A stretch of DNA of 64,000 bases from Leptonemataceae bacterium (GTDB lineage: Bacteria > Spirochaetota > Leptospiria > Leptospirales > Leptonemataceae), in NCBI GenBank assembly GCA_965227295.1, contig OZ245742.1:2336001-2400000 (forward strand), written 5' to 3'. Positions within the stretch are counted from its first letter, which is position 1; every line of letters begins with the position of its first letter. Below are positions 26,257-45,513 of the stretch, piece by piece. Under the pieces are notes generated by a model. It made no database searches. It was not told the DNA's origin and saw only the letters and a list, made by a program, of their open reading frames with translations. The position numbers and the translations under genes are program-made.

Positions 26257-26263
26257 TATCACC

Positions 26264-26782: not shown

Positions 26783-27066
26783 CCGATTGTAGTTGCAAAC
26801 GTAGATTGCTCGTCGCATACTTGCGAAAATGTGCCCAACAGGCACACCGAAATGTCTGATGTAATGGAGACGTTTCGGATGAGATCAGAGGATCTTTAAC
26901 AGGCAAGCAGTGATAGTCTGAACGGACTGACTGCGGCGAGAAGAAACAGCAGAGGTTCGCCTCTGCCGAAACGATATGCTGAATTCCGCACACGTGTGCG
27001 GAATTCGCCGCTCCGTAAGCGCGGACCGTTCAGTTCTTTGCGGCTAATATCTGATTCACAAGCGTT
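26783..27066. repeat. Junction element copy A (core only)
   Basis: Near-identical to the cores of copies B-D; palindrome at 26981-27006; fused directly to cassette 1. Confidence 0.9.
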
Positions 27067-30000
27067 GTGCTGGCGAACAAACCGGACACGCTGAATGAAA
27101 GCGTGGTGATGGCGGGAGAATACGCGAACACGCAGATTTTCCTCAATGAACTGAAGGACCAGAACTTCGACAACAGCATCCAGGATCGTTATGATGATCT
27201 CAACGAACGTTACGGGGAAATGGCGCAACGACTCGTTAGACTGCAAAGCCTGGATAGTCTGTACGGATTGATTGACCTGTTCGATGAAACGATCGCAGAA
27301 GCGAACGCCAGATTACAGTTGCAGATGGACCAGAAGATGGGCCAGACGAACTGGGTGAAGATGGGTGATTTGTATACGAAGCAGATCAAAACGGCACAGG
27401 CAGTGCTTACGGGACAGCCGAGCATTCCCGTGTTTGCACCGTCGTTCCACGATTACTTTTACTTGAAGCCGGACCTCCGCAGTGAAGCGGTGGTGAAAGA
27501 CTCGGAAGGCAAAGAGTGGAACCTAACAGACACTGAGTCCATATTAGCAGACGGCGGACCGAGCAGCGCGGAACTGGAAAGTATGGTGCGGCTGGTGCGC
27601 AACAAGCTGGAGAAAGAGTTCGAAGCGACATACGATCCGGATGAGGAAGTGGACTACGAAGGAACGAGTGGGCTGGTGTTTATTAACTGGCAACAGGCCC
27701 TTGCGGATGCCAGCGCGGCCGCGATTAACCCATCCACCTGTAACTTAGCAGAAAGCATGGATGAATGCGCCCGGAACATTATGCAGTCCGGGTATACCGT
27801 GGGCCTTGTGGAAGGCGGGACGTTTGGACGGCACCACTTCGAGGAGTACTACCGCGCACTGACAATCCGCAATTTCTTCGACCAGATGGAAGCAGACGGT
27901 AGAGCTATGCGTGAAAGTACCGGCGGTCGCATGGGGCGGGACTTCGGGACGAATTTGACGGCCATACACCGCGGTACGGTGCGAAACATGGACTGGGCGT
28001 TGAATACTCTGGAACGTAATTCGAAGTACGTCCAGATGCTTCAGGTTGCGAACAGGCAGTTACCGATTACTCAGGCGCAAATCGGCGCGGCGCGGCGCGG
28101 GCTGGATCAATACGAAGACATGAACCAGCGCGTGCGGGTGGGACTGAGCAAAGGCTGGCAGCGGAACGACGATGAGATAGATGCGGTGATTAAAGTGGGC
28201 GGCACGATTGTGGCGGGTGTGCTGTATGCCGTCTCGTTCGTCTTTCCTCCGGCGGCAGCCGTCGCTTCCGGAATCTTAGCAGCAGTAGGTTCGTACTCCG
28301 GAGTGCGTGGAAGTTATGAAGGCGGCACAAAGGGCGCGCTGGCGGGAGCGGCGAGTGTGGTGCCGGCGATCGTTACCAAAGGTGCGGTGAATACAAACTT
28401 AAGCTACACGTTTCAGGAGGGCTGGAGCGCCGGTGTGGGCGCGCAGGTGACAAAGGGCATTGCCGCCGGTGTGAATTACTCCGAACAGGCCGGTTGGGGC
28501 GGCAATGTTAGCATCGGCCTCGGCGATTCACCGTTCGCTCTTGATTTGAGCGTGGGTGAATACGGCCGGTACGGCGCGGGGCTGACGTATAACTTTATTC
28601 AGTCGCCGAATGACGTCAGTAATCAACTGACCAGCGGCTTACGCGTGGGTTTTAATCAGGGGCCGGAAGGTAATACGTATAGCCTGGGGCTGAATGCTTC
28701 ACTGGTGGATACCGTGAACAGCACGAGTGGGAGCCTGGGTCTGGGGCTGACTTACAACAAGAACTTCGGAACCGGCTTTTATGTGAGCGGCGGGGCCGGC
28801 GGCGGTACGCATAGCGGCGGTCTCGGTACAACAGCGCAGTATAACTGGAGCAGATTCGGGGAGGACTCGACGACATTCGGTCTGACGTACAGCAAGCCGC
28901 GGGATTGGGATGGTTCTGACGGTCCGAATACTCCTGCGCAGAAGAATCTGCTCGACCTGTTTTTGGCGTCCGGCACAGGGCGGACGATGCGGGAGTTCTT
29001 TGGGGATGTCAGCCGGATGGGTATGACCGACGCGGAGAAAGAACAGGAGTATCAACAGTACCTTGCGGCGAAAGAGAAGGCGGAGTTCAACCGATTGCTG
29101 AGTCTGGAGGGTTTCTCCAGCATTGGAGATGCCGCGTTGATGGGCGTCGCCATTCTTCGTAACAACGACTTTGAGCCGGATTCCAAGCAAGGGAATCATG
29201 AACAATACGAAGAGATGGTGGATCGCCTGGAGCAGCGGAAGCTGGAGAAGGGCGATGAGCTATCGAAACTCGACGTCGCCGCTGTTGCGCAAGAGATGGC
29301 CGGGGAGGCCGAACTCAGCATCAATTGGATCGATACGCACGAGCGAGCTGTTGCTATTAAGCAGCAGGATATTCGGGAAGAGAGGTTGGCGAATGCGCCT
29401 GCGGATTCTTCCGAGGAAGGTGTTGCTTTCTACGGAGAAGGGGGCAGTGGATCCTGGCCATCACCTCAGCCAACCATTGTCGGTCCCGGTTATCACATTC
29501 CCGGGCCCGATATTAGCTTTCCTGATTTATGGGATAATCCGAATACGAAAGATGATAACTCAAACCCGTGGCAGTTGGATTGGAATCTTGACCGTTCGAA
29601 CGAAATTCCGGATTGGGGGGACTATGGAGCTACGGGAGAATGGGAAGGATACGATGGGGGCGGGGGCCGCTTTGGTGGTCACGGAGCTTCTTATGGAGTT
29701 GAAGATAAGGAATGGGATGTAGTATTCTTCCAGACTAACGTTACCTTCGGTATTGGCGTTGGCGGCTCAGCCGGATGGGGCGGGGCAATTGACCTCGGAA
29801 ATTTGAATTATGCCTTTGGGACACCAGCAGGTATCTATTATGGTTTGGATGACGGCCTTTCCGGAACAATCGGTATGTCTAATGTGCAAAACCCAAGAAG
29901 TCTCTTTACTAATGCCACAACCGATACTTCAATGGTTTTTCTAGTCGGTGGTAACCATAAGGTCATCCATGAGACCCATGATCCCAATACTGCGAGGCAT

Positions 30001-30123
30001 GCCTTAGGCGTTGTCATTGGCGCCAGAGTTGCCGCAACAACAACGCCAGGGTTTCAGACAGTCGATCCATGGAGCGCCTATCTAAAATGGAGGGAGGATT
30101 TGCGTCAATCAATGATGCAGTAA
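27067..30123 (+). CDS. Orphan toxin cassette 1 (5'-truncated copy plus alternative C-terminus)
   Basis: Matches the giant gene from 23062 (VLANKPD) and diverges after about LDLFLA (~28970). No clear native start. Confidence 0.85.
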   Translation: MLANKPDTLNESVVMAGEYANTQIFLNELKDQNFDNSIQDRYDDLNERYGEMAQRLVRLQSLDSLYGLIDLFDETIAEANARLQLQMDQKMGQTNWVKMGDLYTKQIKTAQAVLTGQPSIPVFAPSFHDYFYLKPDLRSEAVVKDSEGKEWNLTDTESILADGGPSSAELESMVRLVRNKLEKEFEATYDPDEEVDYEGTSGLVFINWQQALADASAAAINPSTCNLAESMDECARNIMQSGYTVGLVEGGTFGRHHFEEYYRALTIRNFFDQMEADGRAMRESTGGRMGRDFGTNLTAIHRGTVRNMDWALNTLERNSKYVQMLQVANRQLPITQAQIGAARRGLDQYEDMNQRVRVGLSKGWQRNDDEIDAVIKVGGTIVAGVLYAVSFVFPPAAAVASGILAAVGSYSGVRGSYEGGTKGALAGAASVVPAIVTKGAVNTNLSYTFQEGWSAGVGAQVTKGIAAGVNYSEQAGWGGNVSIGLGDSPFALDLSVGEYGRYGAGLTYNFIQSPNDVSNQLTSGLRVGFNQGPEGNTYSLGLNASLVDTVNSTSGSLGLGLTYNKNFGTGFYVSGGAGGGTHSGGLGTTAQYNWSRFGEDSTTFGLTYSKPRDWDGSDGPNTPAQKNLLDLFLASGTGRTMREFFGDVSRMGMTDAEKEQEYQQYLAAKEKAEFNRLLSLEGFSSIGDAALMGVAILRNNDFEPDSKQGNHEQYEEMVDRLEQRKLEKGDELSKLDVAAVAQEMAGEAELSINWIDTHERAVAIKQQDIREERLANAPADSSEEGVAFYGEGGSGSWPSPQPTIVGPGYHIPGPDISFPDLWDNPNTKDDNSNPWQLDWNLDRSNEIPDWGDYGATGEWEGYDGGGGRFGGHGASYGVEDKEWDVVFFQTNVTFGIGVGGSAGWGGAIDLGNLNYAFGTPAGIYYGLDDGLSGTIGMSNVQNPRSLFTNATTDTSMVFLVGGNHKVIHETHDPNTARHALGVVIGARVAATTTPGFQTVDPWSAYLKWREDLRQSMMQ

Positions 30124-30130
30124 GAGAAAG

Positions 30131-30439
30131 ATGGTACAAATCTTGGCGCTAATATTCGTAGCTTTGGTGATTGCCATTCTTGGTGTGTCGACGTATTGGT
30201 TTCACCATTATTCAAAGCTGGTGCGAGAGCATATGCGCGAGAATGGGTATGAAATGGAAGGGTACATTTCTATCGGTTACCCCTGGCTCTATTTGCAATA
30301 TAGCATGTATCTTGAAGAAAATAATAAGAAGCTCCCCACGGAGCTATATCGGTGCCTTTGGATCCCATTCGTCGGTGTCGTCCTCTGTATGCTATTCACG
30401 TTTGGTTTCATACATCTGGTAACGACTGTCTTTCGTTAA
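30131..30439 (+). CDS. Two-TM candidate immunity protein of cassette 1
   Basis: 7 nt after the cassette stop; two hydrophobic helices; low GC. Confidence 0.65.
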   Translation: MVQILALIFVALVIAILGVSTYWFHHYSKLVREHMRENGYEMEGYISIGYPWLYLQYSMYLEENNKKLPTELYRCLWIPFVGVVLCMLFTFGFIHLVTTVFR

Positions 30440-30463
30440 TTCCTCAGTGGGAGTGATGTTCGT

Positions 30464-30706
30464 ATGAACGAAGAGAATATTGACTTTTATGCTAATCAGA
30501 TTGCGGTAAATATGAATCCGCTTGAAGTAGAGATTGATGCAAAGATTATCAGATCAGATGGCAATGAGGGGGGCCGGCTATTCTTGCGATTGCCGCCAGC
30601 GCTGGCACTAGGATTAGTTCATGGTCTCTCTGCTCAGCTTGATGCATTCCAGGAGCAATTTGGTGAGATTAAACTCCCGGAAGGCTTAGTTCAGAGAAAA
30701 AAATGA
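30464..30706 (+). CDS. DUF3467-like small protein
   Basis: FYANQIAV...RLPPALA...L...FQEQFGEI pattern; GGGAG upstream. Confidence 0.6.
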   Translation: MNEENIDFYANQIAVNMNPLEVEIDAKIIRSDGNEGGRLFLRLPPALALGLVHGLSAQLDAFQEQFGEIKLPEGLVQRKK

Positions 30707-30717
30707 CGGTTCTGAGG

Positions 30718-31245
30718 TCATAGTTTCCGCTCTACCTTCTGTAGAGCGGACTTGATGCCAGACTCGAATTGACGTTTTTTGAAAGCAGGTACGAGGGTGG
30801 TTGCGATCACATCGTTGAAATAGTCGTTCCGAATTGATTGTGCGAGTTTCCGATCTGCTTCAATTCGAATTTTTCCATCACGAGTGGCAATCACAATAAG
30901 CATGGACATATTCTCCGCCGGAATGTGCCCAGCTGAGTCCCACTGTCTGGCAGCTGTTAAAGAGAAGTCCTCAATTGGGATACCGTTCGTAGTTTCTACA
31001 ATAAGAATAGCCGATGATAAACGTTTGTTTTTTTCCAACTTTTCGATAGTGGATTCAATGCGAAGGATGCTATCGGCTGCGAGAATCTCTGCGTAATCGT
31101 TCACAGATCCCTGTACTGTGGTCGCAAGTTGCTGTGAATTGATCGGAGAGTCCTTTGCTTCTGGGAAGAAATTGCACTGCACACGTGGGAAGCAACTCAC
31201 AATGAATGCAAGGACAATAATGAGAGCGACTCTGCTGCGGATCAT
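30718..31245 (-). CDS. TPM-domain (DUF477) lipoprotein
   Basis: MIRSRVALIIVLAFIVSC; VNDYAEIL, IEDFS, RIE, VPAFKKRQFESGI. Start placed at 31245. Confidence 0.8.
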   Translation of the reverse strand: MIRSRVALIIVLAFIVSCFPRVQCNFFPEAKDSPINSQQLATTVQGSVNDYAEILAADSILRIESTIEKLEKNKRLSSAILIVETTNGIPIEDFSLTAARQWDSAGHIPAENMSMLIVIATRDGKIRIEADRKLAQSIRNDYFNDVIATTLVPAFKKRQFESGIKSALQKVERKL

Positions 31246-31331
31246 TAGTGTTTTATCGATGCTCTCCTTTACTTCGTCAACTGGAATTGGTCTATGAAAA
31301 TTGAAAATCTTTTTGGATGTGTCGAATAGGG

Positions 31332-31839
31332 TGTAAGCTTGAAATACTCGTCGACGCCTCCAGGCGGCCCCACGCCGGGTTATCCCTTGCGAGTCTTTGA
31401 ATGAGCCGGATTTCTTCGACTGGAATTCGCGGCCGGCGCGGTCGATTGTAGTTGCAAGGGAAGATTGCTCGTAGCCTACTTGCGAAAATGTGCCCAACAG
31501 GCACGCCGGAATGACTGCTGTAACAGAGACATTTCGGATGAGATCAGGGGATCTTTAACAGGCAAGCAGTGATAGTCTGAACGGACTGACTGCGGCGAGA
31601 AGAAACAGCAGAGGTTCGCCTCTGCCGAAGCGATATACCGAATTCCGCACACGTGTGCGGAATTCTCCCTTCGAGAGTCGGGGCCGCTGAGTTCTTTGCG
31701 GCTAATGTCTGATTCACAAGCGTTAGCGATGCGGAGGGTGGCGCGCAGCGCCAGTCTCGCGTCTTCGCGAGACCGCAGCGAAGCGGAGCCCGTAGCAGCG
31801 CGACGGCCCGCCGCCTCCGCGGCGCGGCGGGCCGGAACG
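31332..31839. repeat. Junction element copy B (IS end + transposase scrap + core + hairpin module), interrupted by the intron
   Basis: Begins TGTAAGCTTGAAATAC; minus strand reads RPRIPVEEIRLIQRLARDNPAWG; palindrome at 31640-31665. Confidence 0.9.
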
Positions 31840-33723
31840 GTGTGCCCGGCATGGGCGATGACTACCGGTGAGAGTCCGGAACCGTAGGTCAGCAAAACGG
31901 TTAGCAGAGGGCAAGGGTTCCATCGCGAGGTGTGGCCTGAAGGAAGCCGTATGCGAAATTCCGATCCGACGAACAGGAATCTGATGAGGCTGGTGTCCCC
32001 GGGCAAGTCTGCCGTACAAGACGAAGCCCGCTGACCGAATGGGGGCACGAGTAGATCAGGCGGGTGCGGAAGGAAAGCCATCGTTCTTACCCGGGGAGGT
32101 CTGCGTGCACGGCGTCTTAAATGGCGCGGAAGATCGGGCGACCGATATTCCAGGGTGCGCGCAGAAGTCAGCAGAGGCCATAGTAAGCCGTGCGATGCAG
32201 TTTCCAGAGCGATAGGCATCAAACGGACGAAGGGCCGAACGATATTTCAGAGGGGAAAGCGGTAATCCTGAATCATGCAGTATGAGCTGGACTTCGTGTT
32301 GGCGGTATCATGCCCGGCGATTACCGGTGGAAACCTCGCGGATGAATCGAGGATGAGTGATAAGAATCACGCAACGACGAATCTGATGGATCGGATTCTT
32401 GAGCGCGAGAACATGGAACGTGCGTTGCGCCGGGTCATTTCCAATAAAGGGAAGCCCGGCGTGGACGGTGTAACGGTGGAGGCGCTCAAGCCGTATCTTA
32501 AGGTACATTGGGAACGTATTAAGCAAGAGCTTCGTGACGGTCGCTACCGACCGCAGCCGGTGCGCCGGGTGGAAATCCCGAAGCCGGACGGCGGCGTGCG
32601 TCTGCTGGGTATCCCATGTGCCGTGGATCGTTTGATCCAGCAGGCCGTGTTACAGGTTCTGAATCCGATCTTCGATGCGAAATTCTCGGAATCCAGCTAC
32701 GGTTTCCGGCCGGGGCGCAGTGCTCACGATGCGGTGCGCGCGGCCCGGGATCACGTACGCGCCGGATTCACGATCGTCGTGGACATCGACATCGAAAAGT
32801 TTTTCGACAACGTAAACCACGACATCTTGATGGCCCGGGTTGCACGCACGCTCAAAGACAAAGCGGTGCTGAAGCTGCTGCGTCGCTATCTCCAGGCGGG
32901 CGTGCTGATTAACGGCGTGCGTCTGGTGGGCGAAGAGGGTGTGCCGCAGGGTGGGCCGATCAGCCCGCTGCTGGCGAACATCATGCTGGACGACCTGGAC
33001 CGGGAACTGGAAAAACGCGGCCATCGCTTCTGTCGTTACGCCGATGATTGCAACATCTATGTGCGATCCATGGGCGCGGGACGCAGGGTGAAGGCGAGCA
33101 TTACTAAGTTCCTGGAAAAGAAACTTAAGCTGCGGGTGAACCCGGCGAAGAGTGCGGTGGATTATCCCCGGAAACGTAAGTTCCTGGGGTTTCGCATCCT
33201 GCGCCGCAAGAAGGGCGGGGTGCAAATCTTTATCGCGGAGCGTTCCATCGAACGACTGAAGGACGGCATCCGGCGGCTCACCAGAGCCCGGACGCCGATC
33301 TCATTCGAGGAACGCATCCGCCGACTGGTCGTGTATCTGCGCGGCTGGGCGGCATATTTCGCGCCGGGCGAAAACACCGCGGCCTTGAGCAAGATCTCCC
33401 AGTGGATGCGCCATCGGCTGCGCATGTGTCTGTGGCGACAGTGGCGACTCCCGCGAACTCAGATTCGGGAACTCACCAACAGAGGGCTCTCCTTGCGAGA
33501 TGCATTCCGGCTCGTCACCATGGCACGCAGCAAAGGCCCCTGGCGCATCTCCGGCACTCACCTGATGGGAATCGCCTTCTCTCCCGGCTACTTTCGCCGG
33601 CTCGGCCTCCTGAACATCGAAGAATTTTGCTTACGTAGCCGTCAAGGATATCGAACCGCCGTATACGGACCCGTACGTACGGTGGTGTGAGGGGCGGCGG
33701 GGAGAACCCGCCGCCTACTCGAT
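31840..33723 (+). mobile_element. Group II intron, bacterial class C (IIC)
   Basis: 5' GTGTGCCCGGCATGGG, GTGAGAGTCC, TTCTTACCCGGGGAGGTCTG; short domain V GAACCGCCGTATACGGACCCGTACGTACGGTGGTGTGAGGGG; domain VI ending CCTACTCGAT. Removal recreates GGAACG|CCCA as in the empty copies. Confidence 0.95.
32353..33690 (+). CDS. ltrA: Group II intron reverse transcriptase/maturase without endonuclease domain
   Basis: NKGKPGVDG, IPKPDGGVRLLGIP, SYGFRPGRS, PQGGPISPLLANI, RYADD; stop inside domain V. Start may be 32275, 32353 or 32386. Confidence 0.95.
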   Translation: MSDKNHATTNLMDRILERENMERALRRVISNKGKPGVDGVTVEALKPYLKVHWERIKQELRDGRYRPQPVRRVEIPKPDGGVRLLGIPCAVDRLIQQAVLQVLNPIFDAKFSESSYGFRPGRSAHDAVRAARDHVRAGFTIVVDIDIEKFFDNVNHDILMARVARTLKDKAVLKLLRRYLQAGVLINGVRLVGEEGVPQGGPISPLLANIMLDDLDRELEKRGHRFCRYADDCNIYVRSMGAGRRVKASITKFLEKKLKLRVNPAKSAVDYPRKRKFLGFRILRRKKGGVQIFIAERSIERLKDGIRRLTRARTPISFEERIRRLVVYLRGWAAYFAPGENTAALSKISQWMRHRLRMCLWRQWRLPRTQIRELTNRGLSLRDAFRLVTMARSKGPWRISGTHLMGIAFSPGYFRRLGLLNIEEFCLRSRQGYRTAVYGPVRTVV

Positions 33724-33751
33724 CCCACATGCTTCTCGCGCGTAAACGCAA

Positions 33752-36700
33752 ACGGCGAGGCCTGGGCCTATGCGCGCGCAACGACGGACGCGGCGAGTTT
33801 CAACAACGGCATGACGGCGTTGTACAACGCCGACGTTGCGGGACAGGCGGTGATCTACGCGGCGGGGCTGGGATTTCTGTTTCAGTTGTATGCGAAGGAC
33901 ACGGCGTTCAAGGATCAACTGGATCGTGCGATGGATCGGCTGTACGGATTGCCGACGACGAACCTGGTGCAACAGGGCAACGAACTGAAGAACCTGTACG
34001 CGGAACTGCACCGGCTCACGGACATAGACAGCGTGGAGAAACTGCGGGATGTGCTGGACGATCCGGAGTACGGCTTAACCGCGGATGATGTGGCATTAAT
34101 CCAGGGCAGCGGAACGTTAGATCAACTGATCTGGAAGGGCGGCAAAGAGGACTTAAGCCTGGATGATGTGGTGGGCGCGAACGGCCTGCCGATTGCGCAG
34201 GATAAGGCGATTCATGATGAGTTTGGATTTTATGTGCGAGACGGGGAATTTTCGGCCGGCAATATCACTGCGAATCCGACAGGGACGGACAAATACGGCC
34301 GCAGAATCGCACTGATGGTGAGCGCCGATGAATTCACGGACGCACTCGCGGCGATGTCACAGACGCAGTACGAGATCGAACGCGAAGAGTACTTCCGGGC
34401 AGCAGAGACAATGACGGAAGACCGTGTACAGGCGGACATGGTGACGATCCTGGATGAACGCGAAGAGTTCTATGGCACGTTGATGCAACAGGCCGCCAGC
34501 GTGGGCGTGCAGTTTGAAATGTACCGCAAACTCGCGGAAGACTATCACGGCGAAGGCGGCGTGGTAGACCAGGTGGCGGAGCTGGAGATCCAACAGCGAG
34601 TCGCATCCCAGAGACACGAATGGGACCTGCGCATGGAACAGTTCCGCAAGAAACGCCAGGAGTGGGGTGAAAACATTGCGCAGCTTACGAACGTGGGCGA
34701 GCAGAAGTGGAGCGACATGACCACCGAGATGGCCACGGCATGGAACGAGTGGCGGAAAGACTTCGACGCCGAAGCTAAGGCAGCGGAAGATCTGTACCTC
34801 GAACGTATTTCGGAAGCGATTGTAGACGAGCAGGAGTGGACGCAGGAATTCACAACGCTGGCGGCGCAAGGGGCGGACGAGCAGACGTTAAGAGAGCTGT
34901 ACGACGAAATCAATGAGATGGTGACGAATCTCAGAAGCGGCCTAGCGGCGGATATGCAGGTGGAGATCAACGCGAATGAGATCCTGAACCGCGTGCTGGC
35001 GAATAAACCGGACACACTGAACGAAAGCGTGGTGATGGCGGGGGAGTATGCCAACACGCAGATTTTCCTGGATGAGCTGAAGGACCAGAACTTCGACAAC
35101 AGCATTCAGGATCGTTATGATGATCTCAATGAACGTTACGGAGAAATGGCGCAGCGGCTCGTTAGACTGCAAAGCCTGGATAGTCTGTACGGATTGATTG
35201 ACCTGTTCGATGAAACGATCGCAGAAGCGAACGCCAGATTACAGTTGCAGATGGACCAGAAGATGGGCCAGACGAACTGGGTGAAGATGGGCGACTTGTA
35301 TACGAAGCAGATCAAAACGGCACAGGCAGTGCTTACGGGACAGCCGAGCATTCCCGTGTTTGCGCCTTCGTTCCACGATTACTTTTACTTGAAGCCGGAC
35401 CTCCGCAGTGAAGCGGTGGTGAAAGACTCGGAAGGCAAAGAGTGGAACCTAACAGACACTGAGTCCATATTAGCAGACGGCGGACCGAGCAGCGCGGAAC
35501 TGGAGAGCATGGTGCGCCTGGTGCGCAACAAACTGGAGAAGGAGTTCGAGCAAACCTACGATCCGGATGAGGAGGTGGACTACGAGGGCACCAGTGGATT
35601 GGTGTTCATTAACTGGCAACAGGCGCTGGCCGATGCGAGTGCGGCGGCGATTAACCCCTCCACGTGTAACTTAGCGGAAAGCATGGATGAATGCGCCCGG
35701 AACATTATGCAGTCCGGGTATACCGTGGGCCTTGTGGAAGGCGGAACGTTTGGACGCCACCACTTCGAGGAATACTACCGCGCACTGACAATCCGCAACT
35801 TCTTCGACCAGATGGAAGCAGACGGTAGAGCTATGCGCGAGAGTACCGGTGGACGCATGGGCCGGGACTTCGGGACGAACTTAACGGCCTTGCACCGTGG
35901 TGCGGTGCGGAACATGAGTTCCGCTCTCGATGTGCTGGAACGTAATTCGAAGTACGTCCAGATGCTTCAGGTTGCGAACAGGCAGTTACCGATTGCTCAG
36001 GCGCAAATCGGCGCGGCGCGGCGCGGACTGGATCAATACGAAGACATGAACCAGCGTGTGCGGGTGGGACTGAGCAAGGGCTGGCAGCGGAACGACGATG
36101 AGATCGACGCCGTGATTAAAGTCGGCGGCACGATTGTGGCGGGTGTGCTGTATGCCGTCTCGTTCGTCTTTCCTCCGGCGGCAGCCATCGCTTCCGGTGT
36201 TCTTGCAGCAGTAGGTTCGTACTCCGGAGTGCGGGGTAGCTACGAAGGCGGCACGAAAGGCGCGCTGGCGGGAGCGGCGAGTGTGGTGCCGGCGATCGTT
36301 AGTAAAGGTGCGGTGAATACAAACTTAAGCTACACGTTTCAGGAGGGCTGGAGTGTCGGCGTGGGCGCGGAGGTTTCGAAAGGCGTCGGCCTTGGTGTGA
36401 GCTATTCGGAACAAGCGGGTTGGGGTGGTAGCATCTCTCTCAGCGGCTCTCAGGGTGTCGGTCTTGATTTCAGCATTGGTGAGCAGGGTCGTTACGGTGT
36501 GGGCTTGAGTGTCGGCGGCTTATGGCAGACAGGGGATGCGAGTGGCGGTGCAGACCTGGGCTGGCGCGTTGGTTACAACACGGGGCCGGAAGGCGAAACC
36601 TATAGTGTCGGTCTGACGGGGTATGGCGGAGAGAAATACGGTCCGAATGGCAACGTCGGTATCGGTGTAACCTACAATCAGAATTTAGGTAACGGCTATT

Positions 36701-38217
36701 ACATTAGTGGCGGAGCGAACGGCGGCGCCGGGTCCGGTTACTTCGGTGGAACGGCAAGCTGGAACTGGACGCGTTTCGGCGGCAGTTCGGCCACGTTCGG
36801 TCTGACGTATAAGCCGCCGCGGCCTGATGATGACGGCAGTCCGATCGATACGCCGGAGGAGAAAACGGCGTTGGATATGTTTCTCGCCGCCGCACGGCGT
36901 GAGGCCGGTGAGGTCTGGGATGATGTCGGCGGCGGGCTTGGATGGCTGGGCGAGCAGGTGGCCGGCGGGTTTGGATGGTTGGGTGGTGCCGTTACTGGCG
37001 GTCTCGCGAGTGTGGCCGGAGCGCTGGGTTGGGAGAGTGGTGCGAATTGGTTGGCAGGGAATGGGTATGTCGACAACGCCACGGCGGAAGCGAATCAGCT
37101 GGCGGAGTTTCGGGCTTATGCCGCGAGAAAAGCGGAATTGGAACAATTAAAGCTAGGGCTAAGAGAAGGGAAAGTCCTAGTTAGAGAAACGGAAGATGGC
37201 CGTTGGATCTTTGTGGATGTCGAAACAGGAGAGTTCTATACTGACGATCCATTCGTTGGAGGACTCGTTCGTTCCGATGAAGAAGGTGTCTTCTATCTAG
37301 CTGGTCCGGTGGTTCCCCCGGCTTTGGCGGAAGCTATCGCGAAAGTGGAACAAACTATCGAAGATAGTGAACCCTTCCCGGATGCTGGAGATGCTGGCGA
37401 CGTTCTCGAGACAAGCGAAAAAATTCTTGAACAAGCAGAGCGACTGAAGAATTTCCGTAAGGCGTTGGGTGCACTCGGCAAGCTTCTTTCCGCGTATGAT
37501 ACTATTAATGATTCGGTGACAAGCATTAAGACACTGTCTGAGCGAGCAGAGGTGCAGGAGGAAATTGAGAGACTTGCCTTGAAGGAAATAGTTCATGACG
37601 AATGGGCCCGGAATACTGAAGCACGATACCGAGTGTCCCAGCGACTAAAAGAGCTAAACTCGGAACTGGGGAAAGTTACGACTACGGAGCAGCGGGAAAC
37701 TCTGACTCGGAGAATCCAACGGTTAGAGAGATTCCGTGATGAGGTACTATTACCTGCTAAACAGGAGCTTCTAATCCTAGAACGATTGAATCAATCTGTC
37801 GATAGAAGGCATAGCGGAGTCGGGGCGGCATTCAACGACTACTTAGAAATCGCCTATCCTTCAAAGGGAGCAGATCCATTCTACGATCCCCATTCAACAT
37901 TCGATTATGATGGGAACCCTCATGAACTGAATCTGACTGATCAAAGGAAGTTGAGGCTTCGGAGTGAGTATTACTCTGCTGTCGCATTGGGAGAGCAATA
38001 CTTCAATGAGACAGGTGCGAATGTGCGTTCACGGAGCATCTTTGGATGGCTTCCTTTTGGGGAATGGGGAAGCAAGGCTGGGAGAAAGCTCGATCAGCGC
38101 GGGTACGCGAGTCTCGATACGACTTTAAAGGGCTACTTGTGGCAAATGGCTTATCGGGCAGAAACTCTTCCAAACTGGCATGTGCGATATATCGATTTCG
38201 TTTCTGATAACTACTAA
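33752..38217 (+). CDS. Orphan toxin cassette 2 (longest; first ATG at 33811) with alternative helical C-terminus
   Basis: Matches the giant gene from 21809 (GEAWAYARA) to 25119 (ESGANW), with a 9-nt in-frame deletion; then a different tip. Confidence 0.88.
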
Positions 38218-39197
38218 TGAAGATCTATATAGTCGGTTTCAGTAGTCTATGCTTTGCTATTCTTGGGGGCATCCATTTCATTCTAGCTGATAGTTTGCTA
38301 GAAGTTGATTCTGGACGACCCGTTCGAAGCATCTTGGTGAATCGGGATCCATCTTTTGTGGCCATAGGTTCCGATTCAGTAGGCTTTCGTAGCAATATCG
38401 CAGTATTCTGGCCTGGTAAGACAAGACCGACTCGGCTTTCTGGAGAGCGGGCTGTATATGCGATGGTTTTTCATCAAGGCTCTAGAACTCTTTATGCTGC
38501 AGGTGAATTCGGATATATTGAGAGCTTTCGATTGCCGACTGGCAATAGGCTTAGGCCGATTAGTTTTCCCGATGTCGAAATTCTGGCCTTAACCAAGGCA
38601 GGAACTGACAAACTGATAATTGCCGGGCACAATACGCACAGTAATCAGCCGTACTTGGGCCTGTACAGTATTCGACAGAAAAAGGTGAGCAACTCTGTCT
38701 TGTTCGCTGAAACGCGTGGGCAGGCGTTCGTATCTGACGTACATTATCATGAGAAATCAAAGTTACTTTTGGTTATGTTGCAAAGGCGAATGTACGTCTA
38801 CGAACTACCGGATTTTGATAGAAAATATGACAGACAGTTGCGAGGTACAGTGATTAGGCAGGCCGTTTTTTCCAAAGATGGTGGAACAATCATCTGGGGC
38901 GGTCTGTTTGGCGAGCTTGGCGCAATCCAGATTGCAGCAAGCGGTTCGAGCTTGGTTAAAGCAGCTCATGAAGGAGAAATCTTGGGGTTGGCTGAGAGCG
39001 ATGACGGTCTACTCGTCACATCTGGAGATGATAAACAAGTCAAGGTGTGGTCTTCTTATTCTGGCGGTCTTGCGTTGGTCGGGACCTGGCAGAGCCCTAC
39101 GGTTGTTACAGAAATAGTCGCGGAAGCTGGGCGTTTGTATCTAGGTATGGCGGATGGAAACCTTGAAGTGCTAGCGATGGAAGATTTTATGAAGTGA
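38217..39197 (+). CDS. WD40-like beta-propeller with N-terminal signal/anchor; candidate immunity protein of cassette 2
   Basis: TAATG overlap with the cassette stop; AHEGEILGLA...LVTSGDDKQVKVW repeat. Confidence 0.75.
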   Translation: MKIYIVGFSSLCFAILGGIHFILADSLLEVDSGRPVRSILVNRDPSFVAIGSDSVGFRSNIAVFWPGKTRPTRLSGERAVYAMVFHQGSRTLYAAGEFGYIESFRLPTGNRLRPISFPDVEILALTKAGTDKLIIAGHNTHSNQPYLGLYSIRQKKVSNSVLFAETRGQAFVSDVHYHEKSKLLLVMLQRRMYVYELPDFDRKYDRQLRGTVIRQAVFSKDGGTIIWGGLFGELGAIQIAASGSSLVKAAHEGEILGLAESDDGLLVTSGDDKQVKVWSSYSGGLALVGTWQSPTVVTEIVAEAGRLYLGMADGNLEVLAMEDFMK

Positions 39198-40349
39198 AAT
39201 AGTCAAGATTCCATCTGACACTCCGATATAATTTGTATCGGAGGAAAGAGATGACAGCAGAACAAAAAATCGTAAAGCACCGGGTGGGCATCTTGAGGCT
39301 GGCCCGTACTCTGAATAACGTTGCAGAGGCTTGCCGGGTGATGGGCGTATCACGCGATACGTTCTACCGGTATCAGCGGTTGTACGAGACCGGAGGCGAA
39401 GAGGCCCTGAAGGATCTCACGCGGCGCAAGCCGAACAAGAAGAACCGGATTCCGGCGGATGTGGAAGACGCGGTGATCGAGTTCACGTTCGAGAAGCCGG
39501 CGCACGGTCAATTGCGCGTGTCGAATGAGCTGCGCAAGCGCGGCGTTTCGATCTCACCGGGCGGCGTGCGTCAGGTCTGGTTGCGGCACGACATGGAGAC
39601 GTTCAAGAAGCGTCTGAAGGCCCTGGAAGCCCGCGTCGCGCAAGAGGGGATCATTCTCACCGAGGCACAGGTCGCGGCGCTTGAGAAAGGCCGCCAGGAC
39701 AAAGAAGCGCACGGCGAGGTCGAATCGCACCACCCCGGCTATCTGGGCTCGCAGGACACGTATTACGTGGGCAATATCAAGGGCGTGGGGCGGATCTACC
39801 AGCAGACCTTCATCGACACGTACGCTAAGGTCGGCTTTGCAAAACTTTACGATCGCAAGAACGCACTGACGGCGGCCGACTTGCTGAACGATCGTGTGTT
39901 GCCGTTCTACGCGGACTACAACATCCCGCTGCTGCGCGTGCTCACCGATCGCGGCACGGAGTACTGCGGCAAGCCGGAGAATCACGAGTACGAGTTGTAC
40001 CTCGCGATGGAGGACATCGATCACACCAAAACCAAAGCGCGGCATCCGCAAACGAACGGCGTCTGCGAACGCTTTCACAAGACGATTCAGGAAGAATTCT
40101 ACGCCGTCGCGTTTCGCAAGAAACTTTACTCAAGCATCGAGGAGCTGCAAGCCGATCTGGATGAATGGATGCTCGAGTATAACCAGGAACGGACGCACAG
40201 CGGCAAGTACTGCTTCGGCAAGACGCCGGCGCAAACGTTCGCTGAATCCATCGCCGTGGCGCGTGAAAAGATGCTGCATAAACAGCATCAGGTATCGACC
40301 TGATCATATCTGACAGGCAGGAGTGTCAGATCGGGTGTTGGCTAGTACA
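39195..40349 (+). mobile_element. IS481-family insertion sequence with 7-bp target duplication TATGAAG
   Basis: Imperfect 26-bp IRs TGAAATAGTCAAGATTCCATCTGACA / TGTCAGATCGGGTGTTGGCTAGTACA; TATGAAG at 39188-39194 and 40350-40356. Confidence 0.9.
39251..40303 (+). CDS. IS481-family DDE transposase
   Basis: HTH (NVAEACRVMGVSRDTFYR), GSQDT, LTDRGTEY, PQTNGVCERFHKT; GGAGG RBS before ATG 39251. Confidence 0.95.
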   Translation: MTAEQKIVKHRVGILRLARTLNNVAEACRVMGVSRDTFYRYQRLYETGGEEALKDLTRRKPNKKNRIPADVEDAVIEFTFEKPAHGQLRVSNELRKRGVSISPGGVRQVWLRHDMETFKKRLKALEARVAQEGIILTEAQVAALEKGRQDKEAHGEVESHHPGYLGSQDTYYVGNIKGVGRIYQQTFIDTYAKVGFAKLYDRKNALTAADLLNDRVLPFYADYNIPLLRVLTDRGTEYCGKPENHEYELYLAMEDIDHTKTKARHPQTNGVCERFHKTIQEEFYAVAFRKKLYSSIEELQADLDEWMLEYNQERTHSGKYCFGKTPAQTFAESIAVAREKMLHKQHQVST

Positions 40350-40370
40350 TATGAAGCGAGTACATTCGCA

Positions 40371-40550
40371 ATGAGATTACTTCAGCGTTCCGCTATTGCT
40401 CAGGCAATTCTTACAGTAGTATGTTTCATTTTCTTTTCTCTCTTTGGGCCGGACATATGGCATGGTGATCTTAAAGCAGGATTATTCGTAGCCGGTGTGA
40501 TCATTTTTTTCGTTGTGCTTTTCTTGCTTGGGAAAGTCGGCCAAAACTAA
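40371..40550 (+). CDS. Small two-TM protein (possible orphan immunity)
   Basis: MRLLQRSAIAQ...; its ATG overlaps the pre-insertion stop of the WD40 gene. Confidence 0.5.
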   Translation: MRLLQRSAIAQAILTVVCFIFFSLFGPDIWHGDLKAGLFVAGVIIFFVVLFLLGKVGQN

Positions 40551-40574
40551 ATTCGAAATCCGTCCCCGATTACC

Positions 40575-40901: not shown

Positions 40902-41034
40902 TTGTCTCTTCCGGTCGATGTGTAAAGGAGCAGTTAAATGCTTGCAAGTCGGCGCGAGCCAATCGAGTCCTTCAGCCAGACTGGCACCAGCAATACATAT
41001 TCGAAATCATTCAGAGGACGTCTTATGATTAGGT

Positions 41035-41607
41035 TGTAAGCTTGAAATACTCATCCACGCCTTCAAGCGGCTTCCCAATGATAAGTAGAATGCAGCCCGC
41101 CGAGCACAGGTCTTCGCAAGACCCGTACGTTATTTTTTTGGTGGCGGTTCTGTCTGACGGCCCTCCGGCGAACCGAGGTCCACAGACGCGTGCGTGCGGT
41201 GCCGATTGTAGTTGCAAACGTAGATTGCTCGTCGCATACTTGCTGAAATGTGCCCAACAGGCACGCCGAAATGGCCACTGTAACGGAGACGTTTCGGATG
41301 AGATCAGAGGATCTTTAACAGGCAAGCAGTGATAGTCTGAACGGACTGACTGCGGCGAGAAGAAACAGCAGAGGTTCGCCTCTGCCGAAGCGATATGTTG
41401 AATTCCGCACACGTGTGCGGAATTCGCCCTTCGAGAGTCGGGGCCGCTGAGTTCTTTGCGGCTAATATCTGATTCACAAGCGTTAGCGATGCGGAGGGTG
41501 GCGCGCAGCGCCAGTCTCGCGTCTTCGCGAGACCGCAGCGAAGCGGAGCCCGTAGCAGCGCGACGGCCCGCCGCCTCCGCGGCGCGGCGGGCCGGAACGC
41601 CCAGAGC
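41035..41607. repeat. Junction element copy C (IS end + transposase 3' scrap + core + hairpin module; empty intron site 41599|41600)
   Basis: TGTAAGCTTGAAATACTCATCC; minus strand reads VLRRPVLGGLHSTYHWEAA; palindrome at 41400-41425. Confidence 0.9.
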
Positions 41608-41611
41608 AGCA

Positions 41612-44410
41612 GAAACAATCGCAGAAGCGAACGCCAGATTACAGTTGCAGATGGACCAGAAGATGGGCCAGACGCACTGGGTGAAGATGGGCGATGTGTA
41701 TACGAAGCAGATCAAAACGGCACATGCGGTGCTCACGGGACAGCCGAGCATTCCTGTATTTGCGCCGTCGTTCCACGACTACTTTTACTTAAAGCCGGAC
41801 CTGCGCAGCGAGGCGGTGGTGAAAGACTCGGAAGGTAAGGAGTGGAACCTAACAGACACCGAGTCTATATTAGCAGACGGCGGACCGAACAGCGCGGAAC
41901 TGGAAAGCATGGTGCGGCTGGTGCGTAACAAGCTGGAGAAAGAGTTCGAACAAACCTACGATCCGGATGAGGAAGTGGACTATGAAGGAACGAGTGGGCT
42001 GGTGTTTATTAACTGGCAACAGGCCCTTGCGGACGCGAGTGCGGCCGCGATTAACCCATCCACGTGTAACTTAGCAGAATCCATGGATGAATGTGCGCGG
42101 AACATTATGCAGTCCGGGTATACCGTGGGCCTCGTGGAAGGCGGGACGTTTGGACGGCACCACTTCGAGGAGTACTACCGCGCACTGACAATCCGCAATT
42201 TCTTCGACCAGATGGAAGCAGACGGTAGAGCTATGCGTGAGTCTACGGGTGGTCGCATGGGCCGGGACTTCGGGACGAATTTGACGGCCTTGCACCGTGG
42301 TGCGGTGCGAAACATTGACTGGGCGTTGAATACTCTGGAACGTAATTCGAAGTACGTCCAGATGTTACAGATTTCTCAAGGCCAGCCCCCGATGTTCCGG
42401 TCGCAAGTCGGAGCAGCAAGACGCGGGCTGAGTGAGTTTGACGACTTCAACCAGCGTGTGCGGGTGGGACTGAGCAAGGGCTGGCAGCGGAACGACGATG
42501 AGATCGACGCCGTGATTAAAGTGGGCGGGACCGTTGTTGCCGGGGCACTGTATGCACTTTCGGCTGTATTGCCATTCCTGGCACCCGCGTTAGTGCCCGT
42601 GGCCAGCGGAATTATGGCCGGGGTGGGTGCGTACTCCGGAGTGCGTGGTAGTTATGAAGGCGGCACGAAAGGCGCGCTGGCGGGAGCGGCGAGCGTGGTG
42701 CCGATGATAATCTCCAAAGGTGCCATCAACACGAACTTAAGCTACACGTTTCAGGGTGGCTGGAGCGCCGGTATAGGCGCGCAGGTTACCGAAGGTGTGG
42801 GTGTCGGTGCGAATTACTCGGAGCAGGGCGGCTGGGGCGGCAATGTTAGCATTGGCCTCGGCGATTCACCGCTCGCTCTTGATTTGAGCGTGGGCGAGTA
42901 CGGGCGTTACGGCGCGGGGCTGACGTACAGCTTTGTGAAGTCACCGGAAACTGCGAAGATTCAGAAACATCTGGGCCTGCGTTTTGGGTATGATCGTGGA
43001 CCGGAAGGCGTAACGTACAGCGCCGGTCTCGTGGGCAGCGTGGGTAACAAGGCCAACGGCTACGCCGGCGGCGGGAACATCGGTCTGACTCACAATCATT
43101 TGAACGGGACCGGCTTTTACCTCGGTGCGAGCGGCAGCGGCGGCGATTATTCGCAGGGCCTCGGCGGGCAGGCGAGCTACAACTGGAGTCGCTTCGGTGG
43201 CAGCTCTACGACCTTCGGCATTACGTATACCCGTCCGCCGGAGGAACACGGGAGTCCGCTGGACAGCCCGTATGAAAAAAATATGTTCGACACGTTCATG
43301 GCGGCGACACGCCGGAATGTAGATGAGTTCTGGGGTGATGTCGGCGGTGGGCTTAGCTGGTTCGGAGAGCAAGTTACGGGCGGTCTCGCAAGCGTGGCCG
43401 GGGCTCTGGGCTGGGAGAGTGGCGCGAACTGGTTGGCGGGTAGAGGATATGTCGACAACGCCACGGCAGAAGCGAATCAGCTTGCGGAGTTTCAGGCGTA
43501 TGCGCTGGAACGTGATACAGAGGAATTTATTCGGCTCGGTGTCCAGGACCGTGCCGTTCCAGTGGGGGAAACACCTGAAGGTAAATGGCTGTTCTATGAT
43601 CCGGTTACAGGAGATTTCTGGTCAGAGAACGGGGATGGTGGACTGAAGCTGGTAACCGAAGATGGTGAGGAAGTTCAGTACGTTCGGGGCAAGAAAAGTC
43701 GCAAGGGAAATAGGTTCCGGTCGGGCAAAAGCTCTGGGGTCAAGAACTCGAAGCGACAATATGCCAAGGCCAAAGAATTCTTTGCGAATCAGCTCAAGAA
43801 TGATTCAAATGCAAAAAGACATCAGGAAAAACAATATAACAATGCGAATATGACAGCGGAGGATAAATTGAATCTTTCTCGGTCACTGGCTGAAAAGCAC
43901 TTGCGAGAAAACTCATCGCAACCAGGAACTCGACCGACTTTACTGGGCGAAGTCATTGCGGAGGGATTAGTATGGTCAGAGGAAATCTTGGCTCAGAAAA
44001 CTATGGATGCTCTTGATAGCGAGTATGAAGATTTAGTTGAATTGCATAGAGAATCGTACACGTCAGGATCGGTAACGACGGATGCGCCAGGACTGGGGGA
44101 CTTAGTAAGGACTCAACTATCAAATAATCGCAGAAAGATCCTTGATCGCGAAGTAGCTAGAGTGGTTGAGAGTACGGAAGTCGCATGGAGCCTCGAAAAT
44201 GGACTCGATCCGGCTACAGCTATTGATCGAGCTATCGACAGTAGCGTGCGATCCTTTGAGTCGAGTATCAGACCGGCTCCTCTGCCGGGTGAGAATACCT
44301 ATTGGAAAGACATCTGGTATGATTCGTTAACTACGGTTGAAGTTAAAATGATCAAGAATCGCGCGTTAAAAGAGTTGATGATTCGAAACCGAAAGAGGAT
44401 GGACCGATGA
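41612..44410 (+). CDS. Orphan toxin cassette 3 with a third alternative C-terminus
   Basis: Matches the giant gene from 23281 (ETIAEANARL); the reading frame is open back into the junction element (ORF 41456). Confidence 0.85.
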   Translation, partial: ETIAEANARLQLQMDQKMGQTHWVKMGDVYTKQIKTAHAVLTGQPSIPVFAPSFHDYFYLKPDLRSEAVVKDSEGKEWNLTDTESILADGGPNSAELESMVRLVRNKLEKEFEQTYDPDEEVDYEGTSGLVFINWQQALADASAAAINPSTCNLAESMDECARNIMQSGYTVGLVEGGTFGRHHFEEYYRALTIRNFFDQMEADGRAMRESTGGRMGRDFGTNLTALHRGAVRNIDWALNTLERNSKYVQMLQISQGQPPMFRSQVGAARRGLSEFDDFNQRVRVGLSKGWQRNDDEIDAVIKVGGTVVAGALYALSAVLPFLAPALVPVASGIMAGVGAYSGVRGSYEGGTKGALAGAASVVPMIISKGAINTNLSYTFQGGWSAGIGAQVTEGVGVGANYSEQGGWGGNVSIGLGDSPLALDLSVGEYGRYGAGLTYSFVKSPETAKIQKHLGLRFGYDRGPEGVTYSAGLVGSVGNKANGYAGGGNIGLTHNHLNGTGFYLGASGSGGDYSQGLGGQASYNWSRFGGSSTTFGITYTRPPEEHGSPLDSPYEKNMFDTFMAATRRNVDEFWGDVGGGLSWFGEQVTGGLASVAGALGWESGANWLAGRGYVDNATAEANQLAEFQAYALERDTEEFIRLGVQDRAVPVGETPEGKWLFYDPVTGDFWSENGDGGLKLVTEDGEEVQYVRGKKSRKGNRFRSGKSSGVKNSKRQYAKAKEFFANQLKNDSNAKRHQEKQYNNANMTAEDKLNLSRSLAEKHLRENSSQPGTRPTLLGEVIAEGLVWSEEILAQKTMDALDSEYEDLVELHRESYTSGSVTTDAPGLGDLVRTQLSNNRRKILDREVARVVESTEVAWSLENGLDPATAIDRAIDSSVRSFESSIRPAPLPGENTYWKDIWYDSLTTVEVKMIKNRALKELMIRNRKRMDR

Positions 44411-44940
44411 AGTCTATACCGTTAAGAACTACAATATTGATATTACTCTTGCTGATGCCGTGGACAGTCGACTGTCGGCCGCAAAGTGAAAACCACTCTA
44501 ATACAAGCTGTGAGATAAACATTGACTTCGAAAAGGGTACGAAGGAGTTCCCAATAGGTCAAAAGTTCACGCCTGAGTCAATACGAGCCTATGGATTTAC
44601 GAAGCTAGAAATGGGCGATGATTTTCTGGAAGGCTCAGGATTGCGAAATTTCTATCACAACGGCACCAAGACAATTCTGATTGCTTATTCCGATGAGGAT
44701 GTACTGGTTCATGTCTCTATCGAGGCAAAGGAAGACGTTTGCTTTCGGGGGCAACTGATTCGAGATCATAATCCGTACGCCTTTTACGAGGCCTTACAAC
44801 AGGCTGGAGCTTCCATTCCGATACAGGATGCAGATGAAATTCGAGACGGCTTTCGGGTTCCCGGGCCTCGGGTTGAAATTCGGGTGGTAACAGAAAACGA
44901 TTCGATACAGAGAATTTTAGTTAGTGAGTATGTCGAATAA
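44407..44940 (+). CDS. Exported/lipoprotein-like candidate immunity protein of cassette 3
   Basis: ATGA overlap; MKSIPLRTTILILLLLMPWTVDC signal. Confidence 0.7.
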   Translation: MKSIPLRTTILILLLLMPWTVDCRPQSENHSNTSCEINIDFEKGTKEFPIGQKFTPESIRAYGFTKLEMGDDFLEGSGLRNFYHNGTKTILIAYSDEDVLVHVSIEAKEDVCFRGQLIRDHNPYAFYEALQQAGASIPIQDADEIRDGFRVPGPRVEIRVVTENDSIQRILVSEYVE

Positions 44941-44996
44941 GTCAGATTGGGCTGCTGAATGCGACTCTGACTTTGTGTAAATAGATTCTTGCACTC

Positions 44997-45513
44997 TGTA
45001 AGCTTGAAATACACATCAAAGCCTCCAGGCGGCCCCACGCCGGGTTATCCCTTGCGAGTCTTTGAATGAGCCGGATTTCTTCGACTGGAATTCGCGGCCG
45101 GCGCGGTCGATTGTAGTTGCAAACGTAGATTGCTCGTCGCATACTTGCTGAAATGTGCCCAACAGGCACGCCGAAATGTCTGACGTAATGGAGACGTTTC
45201 GGATGAGATCAGAGGATCTTTAACAGGCAAGCAGTGATAGTCTGAACGGACTGACTGCGGCGAGAAAAGGCAGCAGAGCTTCGCCTCTGCCGAAGCGATA
45301 TGCTGAATTCCGCACACGTGTGCGGAATTCGCGTCTCGGTTCCCGGAGGATGTTCAGCTCTTTGCGGCTAATGTCTGATTCACAAGCGTTAGCGATGCGG
45401 AGGGTGGCGCGCAGCGCCAGTCTCGCGTCTTCGCGAGACCGCAGCGAAGCGGAGCCCGTAGCAGCGCGACGGCCCGCCGCCTCCGCGGCGCGGCGGGCCG
45501 GAACGCCCAGAGC
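44997..45513. repeat. Junction element copy D (empty intron site 45505|45506)
   Basis: TGTAAGCTTGAAATAC start; same transposase scrap as copy B; palindrome at 45305-45330. Confidence 0.9.

Follow-up and report, generated by a model that had tools for sequence, protein, structure and literature searches.

Composite joints of insertion-sequence debris, a structured core and a REP-like repeat before orphan toxin cassettes in a Leptonemataceae genome

Polymorphic-toxin loci can carry orphan arrays, in which cassettes that lack their 5' part, each with an immunity gene, lie behind a full-length toxin gene and in its orientation (PMC3150448, PMC4287609, PMC5361080). In the model published for such arrays, a homologous anchor in the conserved region of the toxin is combined with an illegitimate join at the far end, a 'displacement' of modules by homology-facilitated illegitimate recombination (PMC5361080). 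Here we describe the joints of an array of this kind in a stretch of 64,000 nucleotides (nt) from a Leptonemataceae bacterium (contig OZ245742.1, positions 2,336,001 to 2,400,000; hereafter the window, with positions counted from its first letter). Each orphan cassette in this array is preceded by the same composite element, made up of debris of insertion sequences (ISs), a structured core and a module that resembles repetitive extragenic palindromic (REP) sequences. The composite is best explained as the standard joint between the toxin-immunity modules of this genome's polymorphic-toxin arrays. Our preferred reading of its role, a tentative one that falls somewhat short of probable, is that of a portable IS-derived/REP boundary block through which toxin-immunity modules may be stacked and exchanged by recombination.

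As in the orphan arrays of contact-dependent growth inhibition (CDI), Rhs, MafB and type VI secretion system (T6SS) loci, the cassettes retain a portion of the conserved region that can serve in recombination (PMC3150448, PMC4287609, PMC5361080). The parts of these papers on which we draw describe no shared structured joint in CDI/Rhs, MafB or Vibrio T6SS arrays, whereas here one block stands at 14 of 14 joints across toxin families. Keyword searches of the open-access literature likewise returned no report of such an element in polymorphic-toxin arrays, which is not proof of its absence.

Three other systems invite comparison. The rAID-1 arrays of Bacteroidales share with the window arrays the presence of repetitive intergenic sequences between orphan genes; in the part of their description used here, however, they are defined by an adjacent XerD-family recombinase, low G+C content and short immunity genes, whereas no recombinase lies near the arrays in this genome, the units are long toxin fragments with immunity genes, and the repeat consists of about 400 nt of IS/REP-derived sequence. 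Integron attC sites differ in size, the window element being three to four times longer, and the genome encodes no integron integrase above cut-off (the best TIGR02249 match, at 85.6 bits against a threshold of 265, lies far from the arrays). Finally, the silent pilS loci of Neisseria consist of tandem 5'-truncated silent copies linked by short conserved repeats, and a structured element in cis aids their recombination with the expressed gene. The window shares with pilS the truncated tandem copies and the conserved linking repeats, but differs in gene family and organism, in that the repeats of pilS are short, and in showing no sign of gene conversion into the main gene. Orphan arrays, IS debris within them and REP-like repeats are already known, and part of what looks strange in this joint resolves into such ordinary repeats, IS debris and an intron; the unusual remainder is a species-restricted structured core and a fixed-edge block at every orphan joint.

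Joints in the window and across the genome

The window holds four copies of the joint, A to D. Their cores lie at 26783-27066 (A), 31442-31719 (B), 41201-41479 (C) and 45107-45385 (D), all on the + strand, the limits of B, C and D being approximate; pairwise identities are 87-93%, with blastn E-values of 1e-106 to 1e-146. The cores of B, C and D are followed on the same strand by the REP-like module, at 31720-31839, 41480-41607 and 45386-45513, respectively, and core A ends in the first bases of such a unit, the remainder of which is missing. In copy B a group II intron cuts the module 4 nt before its 3' end, leaving the last four bases at 33724-33727. The 115-nt module of C is identical to that of D (112 of 112 positions), and B agrees with them at 104 of 104 up to the intron. 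An earlier note on this DNA, made from the letters alone, had reported four junction copies, each with a core of about 280 nt bearing hairpins and a palindrome, a 115-nt module alike in B, C and D, and a cassette within 0-30 nt of the element (in B after removal of the intron). Sequence comparison and blastn bore out each of these points.

Behind each element, homology to the main toxin gene begins within 0-24 nt. The four orphan cassettes, all on the + strand, are 5'-truncated copies of the main toxin's C-terminal part in the same orientation as the main gene: cassette 1 (27067-30123) is homologous from amino acid (aa) 3174 (blastn 90% over 1517 nt), cassette 2 (33752-38217) from aa 2756 (95% over 3340 nt) and cassette 3 (41612-44410) from aa 3247, and all that is left of cassette 4 is a 153-nt fragment (45514-45666) that starts at aa 3249 and is cut off by an IS, IS_B. 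The main gene itself (13543-26256, +) is a full-length open reading frame (ORF) for a giant polymorphic toxin of 4237 aa with an Ntox30 C-terminal domain (Pfam, E 1e-24). Directly behind the toxin domain lies its presumed immunity gene (26225-26716, +), with HEAT repeats (Pfam HEAT_2), and one of the cores follows this gene.

To follow the joint across the genome, a single 5.94-Mb contig (C1), we searched for the core with blastn, which found seven full copies; alignment added two diverged ones, H and I, and an nhmmer profile built from all nine returned only these nine. All nine stand directly before a 5'-truncated toxin cassette and in the same orientation, in five arrays of at least two toxin families: four in the window, one behind each of two paralogous giant toxin genes (C1:768011 and C1:5008313), and three in two arrays of toxins with a PT-HINT domain. 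A further five orphan fragments (F2, G2, G3, G4 and C1:42585) carry the GC-rich module without a core. Taken together, 14 of the 14 orphan joints found carry the module or, in copy A, its first bases, at 11 distinct breakpoints, and each of the 13 junction REP-like units precedes a truncated toxin cassette in the same orientation. The PT-HINT domain occurs 14 times in the genome, and all four of its orphan copies stand behind the element. The genome-wide profile search found no core at toxin genes that lack orphans, and none lies behind the last cassette of the arrays at loci L001 and L002. The composite joint is therefore confirmed as a real observation, beyond chance and wider than first reported: the earlier claim that an element precedes every orphan cassette holds for the whole genome, the pattern is not confined to 26783-45513, since five more cores lie elsewhere, and the profile search rules against the core being a widespread miniature inverted-repeat transposable element unrelated to cassettes.

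Copies B and D share their upstream IS debris and differ in breakpoint (aa 2756 versus 3249), while C and D have a breakpoint in common and different debris upstream; breakpoints also recur in pairs (C/D, G/G2 and G3/G4). Informative sites in the four window cores support all three possible groupings (AD|BC at five sites, AC|BD at four and AB|CD at two), a mosaic pattern expected if core copies recombine. Between the edge of the repeat and the toxin homology lie 3-28 nt of filler.

It might be argued that all of this is functionless: one ancestral joint of IS debris and a REP-like unit would have been copied with the cassettes by duplication and homologous exchange, the breakpoints arising from later deletions that start at the hairpin, a deletion-prone structure. 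We regard this as unlikely, if still a serious contender. Its component parts are ordinary, breakpoints do recur in pairs, filler bases are present, and the core was not found outside this genome: blastn returned no relatives in 41 genomes of the family or 155 of the order (at most four candidates scored per genome) and no match in plasmids or phages, two patterns gave 0 matches each in metagenome contigs, and the exact palindrome pattern of the core occurs in the species collection at five unrelated loci (in Duganella, Rugamonas and a metagenome-assembled genome of Clostridia) that otherwise bear no likeness to it. However, the cores stand in arrays with unrelated upstream and downstream contexts and with different toxin families, so that co-duplication alone cannot account for their placement. 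Likewise, the earlier suggestion of an ancestral junction co-duplicated with the cassettes is not the whole account, because 11 breakpoints in several toxin families imply that the element was not only copied along with one cassette.

Layers of the joint

The outermost layer consists of IS debris, which is always antisense to the cassettes and colinear with an intact element. Copies B (31332-31426, + strand coordinates here and below) and D (44997-45091) are built alike, with 37 nt of the end of IS_B followed by a 59-nt antisense piece like the interior of the IS_C transposase; copy C (41035-41210) has the IS_B end and 176 nt of the 3' region of the transposase, antisense, with a 7-nt microhomology at the core. 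A 16-nt IS-end motif occurs at 31332, 41035, 44997 and 45667, and at the last of these it forms the end of the IS_B copy itself. This copy (45661-46800, -) has its transposase ORF at 45695-46612 (rve_3) and seems to lack its left part, since its right end has no inverted counterpart; nor was a complete IS_B copy with both ends and target duplications found. IS_C is represented by one full-length copy, and its transposase, also of the rve_3 family, is 41% identical to that of IS_B. The earlier note placed IS debris in B, C and D only, which is correct for these three. Copy A is not free of it either, as an IS_C-type right-end scrap precedes its core at 26721-26778 (blastn 86% over 51 nt, and a three-way alignment with IS_C and a scrap at C1:42413).

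All three IS_B sites and all IS_C-type DNA matches in the genome fall within toxin arrays. Core G is preceded by an IS_C-type transposase remnant (aa 142-340), bringing to five of nine (A, B, C, D and G) the cores that stand directly behind colinear antisense remnants; in B/D and in G, the IS backbone gives way to the core at nearly one and the same IS coordinate, which suggests that the core was assembled into a backbone of this kind on a single occasion and spread from there. Where debris meets core there are microhomologies of 5-7 nt. The scraps are decayed antisense IS_B/IS_C elements. Two candidate links between the block and mobile elements were rejected: a core that is the left-end leader of IS_C (local alignment score 20 against a shuffled mean of 23), and a contribution from IS_A (39195-40349, +), an unrelated, active-looking IS present in six copies with target duplications at unrelated sites. 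A third, a core that is the leader of an IS like the one in the related genome G032, is not supported (the G032 transposase has no blastp likeness to those of IS_B or IS_C).

The core is about 255-280 nt long. Its 26-nt perfect palindrome is unchanged in eight of nine copies, with one change in copy G, and the nine-copy structure contains five helices with compensatory changes; overall, 93% of cells are paired as compared with 33-46% in slid controls. Double-changed pairs number 8 of 60, against 3.7 in shuffles (4 of 500 shuffles reach 8). The support from compensatory changes is moderate, because the copies represent no more than about three independent lineages and the same sequences served to derive the structure. 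Cores A to G fold better on the + strand and H and I on the - strand; copy C has a fold z-score of -4.3 on the + strand and -2.8 on the -, and the fold energies of the alignment barely differ between strands (-48.2 versus -45.2). A search against Rfam (cmscan, E<=1, over 24000-48000) gave only three group II intron matches and no family for the core.

The core also contains promoter-like signals: a TTGCAA hexamer invariant in nine of nine copies, a variable spacer of 17 nt and a -10-like hexamer (A2 in eight of nine copies, T6 in nine of nine). These raise what is the main rival to our preferred reading, a possible one that does not exclude it, namely that the block may be an expression element, with an outward promoter and a structured 5' leader or small RNA, the palindrome as operator, and the orphan immunity genes transcribed independently of the main operon. 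As the principal role of the block we judge this unlikely, though it deserves attention. The conserved hexamers, the five helices, the better + strand fold of A to G, the co-orientation of every copy with its cassette and the palindrome kept where the rest of the core diverges would all suit it. On the other hand, a sigma-70 consensus scan that needs 9 of 12 positions does not report the site, which matches 8 of 12, H and I fold better on the - strand and the alignment energies are nearly equal; copies D, I and G2 are retained though no immunity gene remains downstream; and the orphans of E. coli EC93 are, in the part of the source cited, co-transcribed from the upstream cdi promoter (PMC3150448). 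Such a role would also leave the fixed edge with its variable breakpoints unexplained. A minus-strand terminator-like hairpin was considered too and rejected, as by eye it is not kept in copy E.

Whether the core is under constraint was addressed by the comparison of core with synonymous divergence that the earlier note had proposed. Pairs of cores reach 90-93% identity (87-93% over all window cores), compared with 67-78% at 4-fold sites of the matching cassettes, but the likeness is equally high (90-100%) in the opening ~600 nt of the cassettes and in the corresponding part of the main gene. Gene conversion or concerted evolution therefore explains the likeness of the cores as well as selection does, and a likeness no higher than that of the cassette starts is what passive copying of the joint would also give. 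The better argument for constraint is retention between arrays: cores H and I are ~60% diverged and yet keep the palindrome and the hairpins, with compensatory changes, which tells against a functionless joint.

The inner layer, the 115-nt module, belongs to a dispersed REP-like family with 142 blastn high-scoring pairs in the genome, 62 of them at least 90 nt long. Of the long copies, 50 are not in the five arrays then known; 36 of these fall outside ORFs as crudely called, and the flank types of the 50 (15/15/12/8) show no orientation bias; one of the 50, at C1:42585, was later recognised as a toxin joint too. The unit is about 124 nt long, its end pentamers covary in three matched forms across subfamilies, and units often occur in facing pairs. 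As in REP sequences and bacterial interspersed mosaic elements, the module is GC-rich and multi-hairpin, with imperfect palindromes (its GC-rich hairpins are seen in the fold of copy C), about 140 matches, a mostly intergenic location, both orientations and covarying ends. REP sequences are known to serve as sites at which duplications are joined and into which ISs insert. Unlike many such families, however, this one resides in a genome without a gene for a REP-associated tyrosine transposase (RAYT/Y1; PF01797 gave 0 matches, while control genomes do match), and the junction copies stand apart in their fixed orientation and 5' flank. The flank CTTC is present in 24 of 31 generic near-full copies and in 0 of 13 junction copies, which instead have ACAA (nine), GCGA (two), GCAA (one) or ACCA (one); the junction units thus form a separate lineage. 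The idea of one dedicated structured spacer, put forward in the earlier note, is not supported, since the joint's multi-stem module is a generic REP-like repeat and its scraps are decayed IS_B/IS_C.

Five copies of the REP-like unit (B, C, D, F and G; window 41490-41612 and equivalents) contain, towards their 5' end, an ATG that is in frame with the cassette, and translation from it would add an Arg/Ala-rich leader of ~40 aa; no ribosome-binding site was seen. We rejected cassette translation from this ATG, because, although several frames are open, the junction frames show no significant bias (five of nine independent joints in one frame).

The group II intron of copy B (31840-33723, +; reverse transcriptase (RT)/maturase ORF at 32275-33690) sits at the 3' edge of the REP-like unit. 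It matches RF02001 (133.9 bits), RF00029 (48.5 bits) and RF01998 (48.5 bits) in Rfam, and Pfam RVT_1 and GIIM with no nuclease domain. An identical second copy (C1:2020597-2022480) lies in a generic unit at a non-toxin site, in the corresponding bond four bases short of the unit's 3' end, and the intron therefore homes to the repeat rather than to cassettes. Some bacterial group II introns insert behind stem-loops, the habit of class C. The window intron resembles these in its RT and maturase domains, its lack of a nuclease domain and the position of both copies just behind a GC-rich hairpin, but its target is a REP-like unit and not a terminator or attC. The best explanation is that the intron arrived in copy B later than the joint. 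After splicing, the frame of cassette 2 would continue from the ATG inside the repeat.

A counterpart in another genus and the surrounding toxin loci

PT-HINT toxins are present in 20 genomes of the family, of which we inspected one, G032, in detail for counterparts; three others (G012, G024 and G036) gave too few joints. G032 belongs to a different genus, and in it three PT-HINT orphans are each preceded by a conserved, GC-rich and hairpin-rich element of ~330-430 nt with a fixed 3' end and differing breakpoints (aa 1190, 1472 and 1503 on the reference used). IS left-end debris lies upstream of one of the three. What recurs in analogous form is the order of parts: an immunity gene, IS debris in antisense, a GC-rich structured block whose edge is fixed, and a truncated cassette. 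This recurrence speaks for a boundary block and is a further point against a purely passive joint. The three G032 cassettes (C5:38000-50930) are in the same frame relative to the element end, with an in-frame stop 9 nt (in one copy 12 nt) before its last base.

In sequence, the two elements have little in common beyond a palindrome whose 8-nt arms agree (one copy only), a motif of 8 nt that precedes the final hairpin block, and a REP-like stretch of 40 nt; the G032 element also has TTGCAA, but by eye no -10-like hexamer at the right spacing, which counts against a promoter role. Three of 42 family genomes contain the 8-nt arm pattern and none matches the reversed control, and the palindromes with the same arms in G032 and G033 have different centres. 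Two of the G032 palindrome sites are part of the left end of an IS with a transposase unrelated to those of IS_B and IS_C. A palindrome with the same arms and another centre also lies at C1:2279300-2279325, ~100 nt upstream of an AcrB-like (efflux) gene. Given the palindromes in an unrelated IS end and the site before an efflux gene, we treat homology of the two elements as unproven. In Duganella and Rugamonas, small genes have a near-identical palindrome of 20 nt immediately upstream, and this may be a common type of operator.

Other features of the toxin loci were noted in passing. The giant toxin genes form a set of three paralogues of 4237-4422 aa that are ~63% identical (window 13543-26256, C1:750677-764000 and C1:5013400-5026602), for which the end domain of the window copy is the sole Pfam match (the window gene was scanned in full and the two paralogues in their C-terminal parts). 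A pre-toxin stretch of ~180 aa is common to the giant toxins and the PT-HINT toxins at 30-36% identity. A gene for a TcA C-terminal TcB-binding domain (Pfam E 2e-102; C1:5000033-5003269) is convergent to the end of the array at L002. At locus L022, four tandem TPR-repeat paralogues of 335-340 aa (3447-8040) follow a PT-HINT toxin gene and are presumably a string of immunity genes. Finally, at locus L001 the stretch from the immunity gene to core E contains a second, different group II intron ORF (RVT_N, RVT_1, GIIM and HNH; 4647-6497, -) and a DUF1016_N/SNase-like ORF (7003-8013, +); of the latter, a remnant of 230 nt also precedes core F.

Assembly of the arrays and possible roles of the block

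The composite has three layers: a decayed antisense IS of IS_B/IS_C type, the structured core, and the junction lineage of the REP-like repeat, whose 3' edge falls 0-28 nt from the toxin fragment. In the reading we prefer, that of a boundary block used in recombination, a new joint would form when the hairpin end of the block is linked to some point inside a toxin gene. The block might be inserted there, or the hairpin might be the site of illegitimate recombination or of template switching. Thereafter the conserved toxin region and the ~400-nt block would act as two homology arms, between which RecA-type recombination might insert, replace, excise or re-order C-terminal toxin-immunity modules, the older toxin end being left further downstream as an orphan. 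In addition, the block may promote or modulate the transcription of orphan immunity genes. A fixed edge with many breakpoints, uniform orientation, and one block per orphan with none behind the last are what one would expect if the block were the distal boundary of each stacking event. Exchange between two arms fits the sharing of debris without a breakpoint by B and D, the sharing of a breakpoint without debris by C and D, and the mosaic sites, and the filler together with the 5-7-nt microhomologies fits illegitimate joining.

Several observations weigh against this boundary-block reading. Cores E, F, H and I have no IS debris upstream. Conserved hairpins with compensatory changes are needless for a mere block of homology, and hint at a function as RNA or single-stranded DNA. 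The filler of 3-28 nt is in keeping with illegitimate joining or with subsequent deletions, not with a precise cut, and by eye there are no terminal inverted repeats or target duplications around the block, so that its transposition as a unit is unsupported. Neither the core nor the giant toxin family was found in the two genomes of the same genus, and the history of the element can therefore not be traced. Finally, no recombination product was observed in the contigs of two DNA runs (X1 and X2), whose joints are ambiguous. Two contig joints skip a core (45091->45381 in X1 and 31426->31715 in X2) and one skips the whole orphan array (26764->45930). In each of them the short side is 29-40 nt and the intervening sequence is not known; their depths are close to that of the genome and the joined 24-mers are not in the reference, as could be the case for variants, other loci or artefacts.

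A stronger proposal is that the block is a dedicated cis-acting boundary element, a toxin counterpart of the integron attC site, in which a host or IS-derived factor would recognise the invariant palindrome and the conserved hairpins, and the element would control how toxin-immunity modules of several toxin families are excised, captured and re-inserted, with diverged versions in other genera of the family. We think this rather improbable. Another proposal is a dedicated site-specific system, with the palindrome and hairpins as the recognition site of a trans-acting recombinase or nuclease that excises and inserts cassettes, attC-like or like the repeats of rAID-1. The block's fixed 5' and 3' edges with variable flanks would suit such a system, as would a palindrome that is constant here while the arm-sharing palindromes of G032 and G033 vary in centre, and an intron that seeks hairpins at the same edge; rAID-1 arrays are themselves described as having repetitive intergenic sequences 'reminiscent of integrons' in the part of the report cited (10.1101/471110). 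We nevertheless consider it very unlikely, as the genome has neither an integron integrase above cut-off nor a Y1/RAYT transposase, the scanned ORFs of the window and of the array loci L001, L002, L003 and L022 contain no integrase or recombinase domain, the joints carry filler in place of a precise crossover, and the left end of an unrelated IS accounts for two of the G032 palindromes.

The assembly of orphan arrays has so far been explained by a generic model, with one homologous anchor and a rare illegitimate join; in this genome the distal joint is non-random. If the block is a recombination handle or a promoter, array growth and toxin switching would become testable with simple assays, and orphan arrays could be located in genomes with the block as a convenient marker. 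A passive block would still be a clear case of IS and REP debris shaping toxin loci.

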